Of a DNA stretch of 64,000 bases, positions 28,268-62,503 are shown one piece after another. The notes beneath the pieces were generated by a model that was not told where the DNA came from, did not search any database, and saw only the letters and a program-made list of their open reading frames with translations. The stretch lies in assembly GCA_965205345.1 (NCBI GenBank), contig CBDBGQ010000051.1, positions 64,651-128,650 of the forward strand, written 5' to 3'. How positions within the stretch are numbered: the stretch's first letter is position 1; each line of letters begins with the position of its first letter. A program made the translations under genes and the position numbers. The stretch is from Acidobacteriota bacterium (GTDB lineage Bacteria > Acidobacteriota > UBA6911 > RPQK01 > CBDAPI01).

Positions 28268-28288
28268 CGCCGTTCCACGTTCCACGTT
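28268..28288. repeat. heptanucleotide tandem repeat (CGTTCCA x2 plus a degenerate unit)
   Basis: CGTTCCACGTTCCACGTTGCG between the convergent rpsD and ygfZ-like 3' ends. Confidence 0.7.
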
Positions 28289-28385
28289 GCGCGACACCTG
28301 GCATTACCCAGCGTCTCACCCCATGGAAACTGGCATAAGCCTGTTCACCACGGTGACCTTCGGACCCTGATCTGCAAGGAAGTAC

Positions 28386-29381
28386 TTAGAACGAGTCGAC
28401 CACCCGGGCCTGAACCGGATCTCCCTTCACCAGCACCGTGACTTCATCCCCGGGACCAGCGCGAGCCTGAATCAGATAGGCAAGGGCAATCGGACACTGC
28501 AGCCGGATCGAATGGACTGCGCTGGTCACAGCTCCTACCTTCTTTTCATTCGTGACTACTTCAGCACCCGGGGCCGGGGTCGGGCTTCCCGGTGAAAAGA
28601 GCAGCTTACCTAGTCGCCTGCGAACTCCGCCGACGTAAGTTGCCTTGGCAACCACTTCCTGTCCCACAAAGCAGCCTTTGTCGAGGCTGATCGCCTGCTC
28701 GAGGCCTGCCTCCATCGGATAGTTGCTCTCGTCCATATCCACTCCGAACCAGGGAGTGCCGCGCTCCAGTCTCAACACATTCCGGGTCTCGTCATCGACT
28801 TTCACTACTCCCCGGGGCCCGAACTCACTCAGAATGCGGGCCAGGCAGGCCTGGCCCGAGCCCCGGGGCAGGAGGATTTCGTATCCGCTCTCAGCCAGCT
28901 CCGGTTTGTTGATCACGAGAGCGTCCATGGACGGTACTTCTTGTACCTGATAGCGCTCCCCGGGCACCGGACCGGGGACAATCTTTTCCAGGATATCTGC
29001 CCCCAGGGGGCCCTGCACCGACAGGTGATCCCACAACTGGCTGTGATCCACAGCTTCGACATCGTCCATGATAATGAACCGGTTCAGCGACTCTACCAGG
29101 ATCGGGGCACGACCCGGATCCAGGTCGATGAGGATGGACCTGGCGAACTTGTAAAAGTAAAAGTCACAGATAAGCCTTCCATTGTGAGTGAGAAAGGTTG
29201 CGTAACGACCTGCTTGCTGCCCCAGCCGTTCCACATCGTGGCTGATCATCGAGTGGAGAAAACTCACATGATCGGGGCCTTCCACCCGGACTTTTCCTCG
29301 CTCCGAGTAGTCGAGGATACCGGCTGACCGTTGGACAGCTTCATGCTGGCTGGCGATCGACATGTGGGTACTTTCTTGCAA
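28386..29381 (-). CDS. ygfZ: folate-binding YgfZ/GcvT-family protein (aminomethyltransferase fold; Fe-S cluster repair type)
   Basis: C-terminal KGCFVGQE motif, the YgfZ/GcvT signature; about 330 aa. Confidence 0.65.
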   Translation of the reverse strand: MQESTHMSIASQHEAVQRSAGILDYSERGKVRVEGPDHVSFLHSMISHDVERLGQQAGRYATFLTHNGRLICDFYFYKFARSILIDLDPGRAPILVESLNRFIIMDDVEAVDHSQLWDHLSVQGPLGADILEKIVPGPVPGERYQVQEVPSMDALVINKPELAESGYEILLPRGSGQACLARILSEFGPRGVVKVDDETRNVLRLERGTPWFGVDMDESNYPMEAGLEQAISLDKGCFVGQEVVAKATYVGGVRRRLGKLLFSPGSPTPAPGAEVVTNEKKVGAVTSAVHSIRLQCPIALAYLIQARAGPGDEVTVLVKGDPVQARVVDSF

Positions 29382-29388
29382 GGAAGTA

Positions 29389-30192
29389 CTATCCCCCCAG
29401 TCGGCAGGATTCTCCCGGGCTCAACTCCAGGAGCTCGACGCCGGCGGGGAGAAGGCGGATCAGTTCGTCCGGGGTGCCCGTCAGCAGCGGGAAGGTGCCG
29501 TAATGCATGGGGACGATTGTCGGCGTTTGTACGAGGCGCGCAGCATGGGCGGCCTCTTCCGGTCCCATGGTAAACAGATCCCCGATGGGGAGAAATGCGA
29601 CCTGGGGATGATAGATCTCCCGGATCAAAGCCATGTCACCAAACACGCAGGTGTCTCCAGCGTAGTAAATGCGAAAGTTATTCTCGAACTGGACGACGAA
29701 CCCTGACGCCGATCCCAGGTAGACAATCGTTCCATCTTCCTCGACAAAACCGCTGCTGTGCTTGGCGTCGACCATAGTGGCTCGGATTCCATCGAAAACG
29801 ACACTCCCACCTTTGTTCATCTGAGTGATGTTGCCAACTCCCTTCGACTCGAGCCAGGCACCCAGTTCATAAGCACAGGCAATCTGCGGTTTGTGCTGCT
29901 TGGCGATTTCCACTGCATCCGAAACGTGATCCGGGTGCCCGTGGGTGATGAGCATGATATCGATGGGTGGAAGCTGCTTATCCGACTCCGGGCAGGCAGG
30001 ATTCCCTCCCACCCAGGCCTCCATCAGAATCCTTTTACCGCCGGGTGACCGGAAGAGAAACGTGCTGTGTCCCAGATACTTCACTTCTACGCTGTCATTC
30101 ACACGACTCGCCTCTTCGTGAATATACCTTGCCCGGCCCGGGCAGTAAACGGTTGACTGTAAACGGTTGACCGTTGACCCTTGACCGTTCAT
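29389..30192 (-). CDS. MBL-fold metal-dependent hydrolase (UPF0173-like)
   Basis: HxHxDH motif (ITHGHPDHVSD) and further conserved His/Asp residues; the start is uncertain (the ORF extends to 30276; start may be later, e.g. GTG at 30084). Confidence 0.6.
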   Translation of the reverse strand: MNGQGSTVNRLQSTVYCPGRARYIHEEASRVNDSVEVKYLGHSTFLFRSPGGKRILMEAWVGGNPACPESDKQLPPIDIMLITHGHPDHVSDAVEIAKQHKPQIACAYELGAWLESKGVGNITQMNKGGSVVFDGIRATMVDAKHSSGFVEEDGTIVYLGSASGFVVQFENNFRIYYAGDTCVFGDMALIREIYHPQVAFLPIGDLFTMGPEEAAHAARLVQTPTIVPMHYGTFPLLTGTPDELIRLLPAGVELLELSPGESCRLGG

Positions 30193-30200
30193 GTTGGAAC
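30148..30200. repeat. direct-repeat array in the 5' region of the MBL hydrolase gene (GTCAACCGTTTAC x2 plus GTCAAC-containing heptads)
   Basis: Minus strand reads GGTCAAGGGTCAACGGTCAACCGTTTACAGTCAACCGTTTAC. Confidence 0.5.
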
Positions 30201-61271: not shown

Positions 61272-61276
61272 ATAAT

Positions 61277-61310
61277 GGGTTCTGGGTTCTAGGTTCTAGG
61301 TTCTGGCTCC
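61277..61310. repeat. heptanucleotide tandem repeat (GGTTCTR x4)
   Basis: GGGTTCTGGGTTCTAGGTTCTAGGTTCTGG between convergent gene ends. Confidence 0.75.
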
Positions 61311-62426
61311 GCCGGAGTCCCCAGCCCAGGGGCTGACGTGCCCCAGGTCCACCTTTGCAAAAAAATCCTGCCAGGACTGACGGAAGCGCCGGCGTGAAAA
61401 TCTCTGCACACTCTGGCGCAGAAGTGTCGGCTGAAAACGAATCGAGTCGAAACTTTCCAGAGCCTCCAGCAGGCTGGGAACCGTCTGCTCCGGAAAGAGG
61501 ACCCCAGTCGCACCATCCTCAACGACTTCCGTGGCTCCACCCTCTCCGAATGCAATAACCGGGCAACCACAGGCGAGGGCCTCGACGGGGACCAGGCCGA
61601 AGTCTTCCAGACCCGGGAAAATGAGAGCTCGTGCTTTTCGATAGAGCTCTCGGATGGTCTCATCACTTTGCCAGCCCAGGAACTCGATGTTCGACCGGGC
61701 CCTCTTCCGCAGGACCCGGGACAGGGGGCCGCTTCCCACCACCAGCAGGCGGTCTCCGCGCAGGTTAAAGGCATGAATGGCAAGATCGAGACGTTTTTGC
61801 GGCACCAGGCCCGATACGACCAGAAAGAAGTCCTCTCCTTTCACTGGAGAGGGAGTGTAAAAGTCCAGATCGGTGCAGGGGTAAACCACTGTCGAATCGC
61901 GGCCGTACACCCGCTTGATTCTCTCCTGAACGGTCTTTGAGATGGCCACGAAGTAATCCACGGAACCGCTCGTCTCCCGGTCCCAGGATTTGAGAGATCG
62001 GGCCCAGTAGGACAGGGCCAGTCCGCGAAGAAAAGAACGTATCTCTTTGCCGTAGAGATGTGGTTCCCAGAGGTAGCGCATGGGAGTCAAACAGTAACAG
62101 ACGTGGGGGATCCCCGGCTCGCGAGGAAAGGCCTTGGCCACAGAATGGCTGATACTCAGAACCAGATCCGCATTCCGGACAATCAGTGAAAGCGAGGCCC
62201 GAGGGAAAAAAGGCAGGGTGTAGCGATAGTAACCTCTGACGCCGGGAAGGCGATTCAGAGCCGAGGCGAAAACCGTCCGCTCCTGCAGGGAAGGATGCAG
62301 ACCGGCGGGATCCAGAAAGAGGGTATTGATTTCCAGACGATCCCAGCCTGAAGCAAGTTCGACCAGGACGCGCTCAGCCCCCCGTGGGTCGAGAATCCAG
62401 TCGTGACAAATGACCACCCTGTTCAT
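61296..62426 (-). CDS. GT4-family glycosyltransferase
   Basis: GT-B C-terminal domain (LVVGSGPL...EDFGLVPVEALACGCPVIA); start at MNRVVICHDW. Confidence 0.7.
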   Translation of the reverse strand: MNRVVICHDWILDPRGAERVLVELASGWDRLEINTLFLDPAGLHPSLQERTVFASALNRLPGVRGYYRYTLPFFPRASLSLIVRNADLVLSISHSVAKAFPREPGIPHVCYCLTPMRYLWEPHLYGKEIRSFLRGLALSYWARSLKSWDRETSGSVDYFVAISKTVQERIKRVYGRDSTVVYPCTDLDFYTPSPVKGEDFFLVVSGLVPQKRLDLAIHAFNLRGDRLLVVGSGPLSRVLRKRARSNIEFLGWQSDETIRELYRKARALIFPGLEDFGLVPVEALACGCPVIAFGEGGATEVVEDGATGVLFPEQTVPSLLEALESFDSIRFQPTLLRQSVQRFSRRRFRQSWQDFFAKVDLGHVSPWAGDSGGART

Positions 62427-62473
62427 AACTCTGAATCTACTCTGTGGGCCCAGTAGTGCAGTCCACAAGGATA

Positions 62474-62503
62474 CCTGGTTCCGGGTTCCGGGTCCTGGTT
62501 CCA
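62474..62503. repeat. heptanucleotide tandem repeat (GGTTCCG-type x4) in a divergent promoter region
   Basis: CTGGTTCCGGGTTCCGGGTCCTGGTTCC. Confidence 0.7.

Follow-up and report, generated by a model that had tools for sequence, protein, structure and literature searches.

Heptanucleotide tandem repeats with a GAAC core in the intergenic DNA of an Acidobacteriota contig: a probable family of slippage-type simple sequence repeats

Many bacterial genomes show an over-representation of heptameric simple sequence repeats (SSRs), for which polymerase slippage has been proposed as the cause (PMC4692102). As cited in that paper, Mrazek, Guo & Shah (2007) tied the preference for 7 bp, as a hypothesis, to the footprint of the polymerase active site. 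Between relatives, the heptamer arrays of Xanthomonas (GGGAATC) and Nostoc (GGGGA(C/T)T) occupy the same intergenic sites but differ in length (PMC4692102). For the Nostoc repeats, a preprint gives modest reporter effects and speculates on a binding factor (10.1101/2022.06.06.494920), and for the TAACTGA heptamers near start codons of Beggiatoaceae an RNA-level role was hypothesised (PMC4679880). Here we describe ten arrays of tandem 7-bp units, most of them built on a GAAC/GTTC core, in a 64,000-nt stretch of an Acidobacteriota contig (CBDBGQ010000051.1, positions 64,651 to 128,650; hereafter the window). On balance, the arrays are probably heptanucleotide SSRs that are mainly mutational in origin. 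Bacterial heptamer SSRs are already known as a kind; what is new is the GAAC-core member in this lineage. In the literature searched we found no paper on heptamer repeats in Planctomycetes or Acidobacteria.

Tandem repeats were detected over the whole window with Tandem Repeats Finder and with a period scan of our own, in which runs of s[i]=s[i+p] were scored for p=4-15 against a null of 30 dinucleotide-preserving shuffles. At a score of at least 10, eight period-7 runs were found in the window against a mean of 0.03 in the shuffles, and six period-14 runs (a multiple of 7) against none; each of the remaining periods gave 0-2 runs in the window at this score. The heptad arrays number ten, with 2.6-14 units each (R0 to R8, with R3a and R3b taken separately; Table 1). 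Gene models were derived from codon usage, Pfam and the gene calls supplied with related contigs, and all ten arrays lie outside them, although 82% of the window is coding. The units of eight arrays contain GAAC/GTTC, vs. a probability of 0.064 for a random heptamer of the window. A second unit family, CTTTCAA/CCTTCAA, is found in R5 and at two sites in related contigs (L085 6752 and L091 15700). The first-pass annotation of this DNA had described such arrays, with related cores, at seven loci; every one was found again, far above the shuffled background, and the common core proved to be GAAC/GTTC. Its count was too low, as the arrays at 23392-23412, 32838-32869 and 59072-59094 had been overlooked. 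Neither a uniform spread over coding and non-coding DNA nor a unit number that is invariant between assemblies, outcomes which it had named as refuting, was found.

Copy number was compared with three other metagenome assemblies (L001, L002, L003), which are 99.6-99.9% identical to the window and were found by exact-protein look-up; the comparison covers approximately 36 kb, 21 kb of it aligned three ways. This 21-kb alignment has 49 substitution columns, and in it R4 of L001 is 14 bp longer than in the window, i.e., by two heptads. The other indels there are three 1-bp differences (two in homopolymer runs) and one 44-bp tandem duplication at ~35348, between the end of the MqnA-type gene and R4, which is present in L001 and L002 and single-copy in the window. 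R6 is likewise 14 bp longer in L003, and the sole other indel in the aligned stretches of that flank is a 1-bp difference. The 1-bp homopolymer indels of the 21-kb alignment are probably sequencing errors. Differences of one base at window positions 37725, 38316, 42489 and 63114, most of them within short runs of a base, break up or join gene calls; an LptD-like gene, for example, is called as 733 aa in one assembly and as 213+520 aa in another. Such single-base differences most likely reflect long-read assembly errors. With exact 14-bp strain differences at R4 and R6, and 7-bp steps at three orthologous arrays, the earlier suggestion of a microsatellite prone to copy-number change is supported.

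The orthologous sites of related species gave the same picture on a longer scale. On the side of the glycosyltransferase family 4 (GT4) gene, the series comprises relatives at 94%, 90% (three samples), 83% (three samples) and 73% GT4 identity, and three orthologous arrays (R6, R7 and R8) differ in 7-bp steps within two related species. An array occupies the R6 site, in the same convergent gap, in every GT4 relative but the 73% one (L091), with 3, 4, 4 and 6 units in the closer genomes and 3 to ~9 overall; in the three samples of the 83% species (L088, L089, L090) the gap between the GT4 and oligopeptidase genes measures 118, 125 and 132 nt. R7 has 5, 4 and 4 (variant) units in L085, L086 and L087 of the 90% species, is degenerate in L088-L090 and is absent in L091. 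In L091, two direct copies of the 29-bp unit CGGCAGGCTCACGCCTTGCCGTTCTGTTT stand in place of heptads upstream of the GT4 gene (~9870-9960). At the R8 site arrays are present in L084-L091, with a one-unit step between L085 and L086/L087. They abut the box CTGATAAAGTTCGCGTCAAAC in L084-L087 and the variant CTGCTAAAGTTCGCGTCAAAC in L088-L090, and L091 keeps an array whose unit is now CAACCTT.

For the rpsD side we used two species at 90% (L216) and 84% (L217) S4 identity. R0, R3a, R3b and R4 are absent at the orthologous sites of both. At the same time, -10-like boxes (CTAGTATAAC, TGTAAACTGAA; in L216 GGTTGTAAC) are kept at the R3a and R4 sites in both species and at the R0 site in L216, and R0 and R4 come with extra intergenic DNA relative to the sister species. 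The R2 array has 6, 3 and 0 units in the window, L216 and L217, respectively, with the box GGTATATTC conserved alongside; its -10/-35-like boxes are conserved in L216 and L217. On the 3′ side of the GcvT gene, L216 carries a hairpin and a GTTCCA-type array equivalent to R1. A pair of genes for an extracytoplasmic function (ECF) sigma factor and a zf-HC2 anti-sigma factor lies between rpsD and this hairpin and array in L216 and is absent from the window. Results of these comparisons show that some sites hold young, labile arrays and that at others the arrays persist, with turnover taking place over the time that separates species.

Classical contingency loci, whose neighbouring gene is switched on or off as the copy number changes (phase variation), were considered next to these data; contingency regulation had also been proposed in the first-pass annotation. 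Copy number does vary between strains, and the hmw1A/hmw2A repeats, a system treated in PMC8262952, offer a parallel. The neighbours of the arrays, however, are housekeeping genes (S4, ThiS-MoeZ, Mrp, ErpA-like, YhhQ-type transporter, GT4) and not surface or restriction-modification genes. No array lies within an open reading frame (ORF), save for the last GT4 codons, and none between -35 and -10 hexamers, their places being upstream of -10-like boxes, at 3′ ends or in a putative leader; where arrays abut a -10-like box, as at the AMP-binding site, the local sequence stays constant whatever the copy number. We therefore regard on/off switching as highly improbable, and the proposal is not supported.

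The positions of the arrays relative to genes were assessed in turn. Most are upstream of genes, in partial agreement with the promoter concentration claimed earlier, but those at 28271 and 61276 lie between convergent 3′ ends. The neighbour of 28271 is rpsD (S4) and not mobA; the MobA-like gene is the one abutted by the array at 32963-32986. From approximately 23 kb onwards, the genes adjoining arrays are mostly housekeeping. Directly downstream of arrays we found -10-like boxes at four sites: TGTTATACT at R3a, TATATT at R2, TGATAAAGT at R8 and its orthologues, and TATAAT/CATAAT at the S26 peptidase gene. Scans of the window for sigma-70 promoter and intrinsic-terminator consensus sequences gave no enrichment over shuffles and touched an array only at R2. 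In the scan, a terminator-like site (GC-rich hairpin plus U tract) was absent at 28250-28290 (R1) and 61270-61310 (R6), and the whole window had no Rfam match at the gathering score.

Table 1. Heptad arrays of the window and other features referred to in the text (window coordinates unless a contig is named)
Feature	Position	Strand	Unit or motif	Setting
R0	23392-23412	+	GTGGAAC x3	77 nt upstream of Mrp/ApbC-type gene start 23489
R0, 5′ side	23361-23377	+	GC-rich motif CCCGAGGCCCCTCCCAC	before the array
R1	28271-28288	- (GAAC strand)	CGTTCCA x2.6 on +	between convergent rpsD (+, stop 28248) and GcvT-like gene (-, stop 28386)
R1 hairpin	28248-28271		GGCGCG..CGCGCC	directly before the array; no T run after
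R2	30145-30189	-	14-bp unit GTAAACGGTTGACT x1.9 merging into GTTGACC x3.4	43 nt upstream of metallo-β-lactamase (MBL)-fold hydrolase gene start 30102; promoter-proximal (last) unit is the source of TTTACT in the promoter-like TTTACT-17-TATATT
R3a	32838-32869	-	CGTTCCT x4.6 on + (AGGAACG on sense strand)	Fe-S assembly/ErpA-like gene start 32780; array end 14 nt before extended -10-like box
R3b	32963-32986	+	CCAGAAC x3.4	abuts ATG 32987 of MobA-like nucleotidyltransferase gene (215 aa), filling its ribosome-binding-site position
R4	35204-35239	-	GTTCCAA/GTTCCAC x5.1	93 nt upstream of thiS-moeZ operon start 35111; adjoined by hairpin GGCGCGCTCATTGCATTCGCGCC
R5	54912-55012	-	14 heptads in one unbroken register: TnnTGGT x7, TCAACGG x2, TTGAAGG-type x3...	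51-96 nt upstream of Vut_1/YhhQ-type transporter gene (-)
R8	59072-59094	-	CTGGGTT x3.3 on + (CCAGAAC on sense strand)	AMP-binding enzyme gene start 59014; divergent gap with prolyl oligopeptidase gene; 12 nt upstream of conserved box TGATACAGT
R8, preceding motif	59108-59124	-	CCTGAGGCCCCTCCCAC	precedes the array
R6	61276-61306	-	TGGGTTC/TAGGTTC x4.4 on + (CCAGAAC/CTAGAAC on GT4 sense strand)	24-nt gap between convergent prolyl oligopeptidase and GT4 glycosyltransferase genes; GT4 stop TAG and last three codons (61296-61306) built from its heptads
R7	62474-62502	-	GGTTCCG x3.9 on + (CCGGAAC on GT4 sense strand)	~50 nt upstream of GT4 start 62426; ~64 nt from divergent gene at 62566
Motif shared by three arrays	23361-23377 (+); 59108-59124 (-); L085 ~17800-17860; L084 ~19010-19070		(G)CCGGYCGCGGCCCTGAGGCCCCTCCCAC, ending in CCTGAGGCCCCTCCCAC	15-20 nt from R0, R8 and S26-peptidase (L084/L085) arrays; unrelated genes
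IS256/Mutator-family element	55075-56408		407-aa transposase	~60 bp from R5; flanked by duplicated ATAGTA
IS256/Mutator-family, identical copy	13373-14596
IS256/Mutator-family, diverged copy	2153-3415
Dispersed repeat, ~175 bp	40313-40478; 53350-53529; 57153-57332		terminal inverted repeats of ~23 bp, CTAGTGCACTGTCCGGAAAGTTC ... GAACTTCCCGGACAGTACACTAG	no heptad array
36-bp tandem repeat	48378-48448		perfect, 2.0 copies	inside ORF 47639-48493
ECF sigma/zf-HC2 anti-sigma pair	L216 10711-12068			between rpsD and hairpin/GTTCCA array
Inverted array pairs in other contigs	L006 4525/4576; L007 14893/14956; L036 728/816; L060 13806/13877; L078 many; also L100, L109, L130, L152, L168, L174

R3a and R3b share the divergent gap between the ErpA-like and MobA-like genes, 100 bp apart, and are mutually inverted without being complementary. 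As the GT4 stop and last codons lie within R6, mutation of this array could change the C-terminus of the GT4 protein.

The strand carrying the repeats is not random within this lineage. At nine of nine independent upstream loci (Mrp, MBL, ErpA-like, MobA-like, ThiS, YhhQ-type, GT4, AMP-binding and S26 peptidase), the nearest downstream gene has the T-poor GAAC strand as its sense strand. This corresponds to a two-sided binomial probability of approximately 0.004, to be read with several sites lying in divergent gaps and with a choice of gene that was partly the analyst's. Exceptions are part of R5 and one 3′-side array in L085. R3a and R3b flip together with their genes within 100 bp, which argues against a replication-strand effect. 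Predicted folding of the GAAC-strand RNA is weak, with a minimum free energy (MFE) of 0 for R3a, R3b and R8, and this strand is the less stable of the two in six of the ten arrays (R2, R3b, R5, R6, R7 and R8). Beyond the lineage, orientation is weak in a set of unrelated control loci described below (A>T 35 vs. T>A 23), and metagenome arrays of (NNGGAAC)x4 are balanced, with 19 sense vs. 17 antisense overall and 18 vs. 13 in tandem gene pairs. A sense-strand orientation as a universal rule was on these grounds rejected.

Such a strand bias, together with the GAAC core in eight of ten arrays where 6% would be expected, is what one would look for if the heptads were tandem DNA sites for a dedicated protein of this lineage, whether activator, repressor or nucleoid protein, that reads a GAAC 7-bp unit at the -35/UP position of housekeeping promoters. 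At four genes with -10-like boxes (AMP-binding, S26 peptidase, ErpA-like and MBL), arrays do lie next to or across the -35 position, and the Nostoc preprint cited above offers a speculated heptamer-binding factor. On the other hand, arrays also exist at convergent ends (R1, R6 and L085 6727/6752), the unit was swapped from CCAGAAC to CAACCTT at the orthologous AMP-binding site, and four arrays are missing in sister species, where the -10-like box is nevertheless kept at three of the sites. Copy number is unconstrained, from 3 to ~9, the metagenome arrays show no preferred orientation, and no candidate protein was identified. Taken together, we consider such a protein unlikely. Nor do the arrays fit the operator or iteron type, since unit, number and position are not conserved across relatives (3 to ~9 copies, the unit replaced in L091, and the absences in L216 and L217).

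The same orientation could also point to a role in RNA, where a T-poor, unstructured leader would serve as a standby site or an S1/CsrA-type platform that sets translation efficiency, for which the Beggiatoaceae TAACTGA hypothesis is a precedent (PMC4679880). In line with this, the GAAC strand is mRNA-sense at all nine upstream loci and is predicted to fold weakly, R3b abuts its ATG at the Shine-Dalgarno position, and many units contain GGA. At four loci, however, a plausible -10 box is located downstream of the array, so that the array would not be transcribed. In addition, ThiS and the AMP-binding gene have strong Shine-Dalgarno sequences of their own, R2 and R7 are predicted to be structured, and arrays occur also at 3′ ends. 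An RNA-level role is, in our view, unlikely.

GGAAC is the typical -35 core of group-4 sigma factors, and stacked ECF-sigma -35 elements were examined as an explanation of sense-strand GGAAC upstream of genes; the ECF sigma/anti-sigma pair of L216 adjoins a hairpin and array. Half of the units, however, have AGAAC or other cores, arrays lie at 3′ ends, and GGAAC arrays are without orientation bias across metagenomes. As no -10 motif is common to any two loci 16-18 nt after the last unit, the idea was rejected and we find it scarcely credible.

Arrays are found in core DNA and not in the accessory part of the window. The first 23 kb are rich in polysaccharide-synthesis genes and transposases (GT2, GT4, pyruvyl transferase, asparagine synthase-like, and IS256-, IS4/DUF772- and IS110-type) and contain no heptad array with a score of at least 10. 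The same is true of four 21-kb loci rich in insertion sequences (IS; L092-L095), which were reached via the IS256-type transposase of the window. In total, 108 kb of IS-rich or accessory DNA yielded no array vs. 22 in 125 kb of core loci, a count in which orthologous loci are not independent. The IS256-type transposase is indexed in 272 blocks of the public collection. L003 (99.7% identical) lacks the 1.3-kb copy near R5, which has a duplicated ATAGTA at its flanks, indicative of a recent insertion. Planctomycete-type PSD/PSCyt domains were seen only in L095, which is tied to the window solely via the identical IS transposase.

Heptads could also reach intergenic DNA as pieces or relics of a small dispersed or mobile element of the miniature inverted-repeat transposable element (MITE) or repetitive extragenic palindromic (REP) kind. 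The GC-rich 5′ motif (G)CCGGYCGCGGCCCTGAGGCCCCTCCCAC stands beside R0, R8 and the S26-peptidase array, and suggests a small composite dispersed element at these three. GC hairpins lie beside R1, R4 and the L216 array, and R0 and R4 arrive with their extra intergenic DNA. Yet the flanks of seven of the ten arrays match no other array, so that most arrays were not brought by one mobile element. No terminal inverted repeats or target duplications surround the arrays, the MITE that the window actually holds (at 40313, 53350 and 57153) is without a heptad array in each copy, and changes in 7-bp steps correspond to slippage, not transposition. Mobile carriage is thus very unlikely as the explanation; as a general origin MITE carriage was rejected, since it fits at most three arrays. 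The MITE-like repeat itself has further copies in L003, and two of its three window copies contain an internal 16-bp tandem duplication, CCCGAATTAACCCCGT. Apart from these, the 36-bp tandem repeat at 48378 would encode a duplicated 12-residue segment.

We also looked beyond this lineage, in 80 loci of unrelated GTDB genomes (1.47 Mb) obtained from a MoeZ scan of genome contigs (relatives at ≤69% identity). As MoeZ is too conserved to track the lineage, these loci serve as unrelated controls. They contain 91 period-7 arrays, 79 of them intergenic vs. 12 genic. The intergenic counts for periods 5, 8, 10, 11 and 13 are 1, 22, 8, 6 and 5, respectively, and periods 6, 9, 12 and 15 are chiefly genic. 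Control genomes have unit families of their own, e.g., AGCTnnn in L038 and GATTTCG in L078, the latter at a minimum of six sites within 21 kb (at least 6). Close inverted pairs of one unit, which are potential long imperfect hairpins, are frequent in unrelated Acidobacteriota, Gemmatimonadota and metagenome contigs (Table 1); they are not a feature of the window. A scan of Joint Genome Institute (JGI) metagenomes for (NNGGAAC)x4 gave at least 120 stretches, and among the matches listed, 62 of 74 arrays in 61 modelled loci lie outside genes. The arrays had been called lineage-specific in the first-pass annotation. This holds for the unit sequence only and not for the phenomenon, since a period-7 intergenic excess is present in the 80 unrelated loci and has been published (PMC4692102).

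The window arrays have what is found in heptanucleotide long SSRs: tandem 7-bp units, an intergenic excess, whole-unit polymorphism (seen between assemblies) and a genome-specific unit family. Their change by whole units, exclusion from coding DNA, species-scale turnover and membership in a cross-phylum kind are observed. We infer that slippage is the mechanism, and that seven is favoured by the replication machinery. The arrays would arise and change length in situ by strand slippage in whole 7-bp units, and they would be confined to non-coding DNA because a 7-bp indel shifts the reading frame. In this lineage they lie between genes of the native core and not in IS-rich DNA of recent acquisition, and they would have no single fixed function. 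An array just upstream of a -10-like box or start codon would act as a spacer of variable length and weak structure that tunes expression in small steps; graded tuning by arrays in these positions is possible.

Several points weigh against this mutational reading. The copy-number differences were read from long-read metagenome assemblies of low coverage (4-13x for records whose name states it). Pure neutrality leaves unexplained both the GAAC core in eight of ten units and the sense-strand orientation at nine of nine loci. Furthermore, arrays remain at the GT4 and AMP-binding sites down to ~83% GT4 identity, and the AMP-binding one outlasts a change of unit sequence; each of these could reflect selection for the presence of an array. 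The shared core, the strand bias in the lineage and the persistence at the AMP-binding site keep a functional reading alive. Its broadest form would be a widespread class of cis-elements, read in a 7-nt register by a conserved polymerase- or ribosome-associated factor or nucleoid protein, with cores proper to each lineage and arrays selected at certain housekeeping promoters while the sequence and number of units drift, as at the AMP-binding site. We think this quite unlikely; if true, it would explain why seven is preferred across phyla and why the GAAC strand is the sense strand in this lineage.

Why bacteria of many phyla gather intergenic repeats of 7 bp, and not of 5, 8 or 10 bp, is a question raised since 2007. 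The lineage described here provides a natural series, in which the same arrays, strand-biased and near -10-like boxes, have different unit numbers across strains and species. This series can be used to test for tuning of expression by copy number and for binding to the repeats. The arrays double as markers for strain typing and as a source of assembly and annotation error, as with the GT4 stop codon inside R6. If they are mere products of slippage, they represent an ordinary genome feature that was previously described.

In comparison with known systems, the arrays are neither short tandemly repeated repetitive (STRR) sequences in the strict sense nor a contingency switch, nor are they demonstrated operators. 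STRR units are CCCCAGT, TTGGTCA and CAACAGT. None of these is present among the window arrays (GTGGAAC, CCAGAAC, CCGGAAC, etc.), and the host is not a cyanobacterium: the nearest named matches of the window S4 are Myxococcota/Bradymonadia metagenome-assembled genomes at 61-67% identity. Part of the gene content resembles that of planctomycetes. The arrays are thus an analogue of STRR and not a member, although they resemble those of heterocystous cyanobacteria (Calothrix/Nostoc) in being dispersed, non-coding and strain-variable heptamer arrays, a property for which STRR are used in fingerprinting (PMC4692102). Like the TAACTGA repeats of marine Beggiatoaceae (2-6 copies; PMC4679880), they are direct heptamer repeats, mostly upstream of the starts of unrelated, partly essential genes. 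TAACTGA, however, is a single invariant heptamer, whereas the window holds a degenerate family that is polymorphic in copy number, with some arrays upstream of -10-like boxes or at 3′ ends. In Haemophilus influenzae, the 7-bp promoter repeats of hmw1A/hmw2A modulate expression in a graded, measured way. The window arrays share with them the upstream position and copy-number change by slippage, but the hmw repeats control adhesins in a host-adapted pathogen, whereas the window arrays adjoin housekeeping genes. The long SSRs of Xanthomonas and Nostoc differ from the window arrays in that the latter belong to an uncultured lineage, have a GAAC core without G-quadruplex potential and lack the inverted pairs seen in Xanthomonas. 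Like these long SSRs, the window arrays are 7-bp tandem repeats, mostly intergenic, with a unit family of their own genome, some sites between convergent genes, and a length that varies between relatives.

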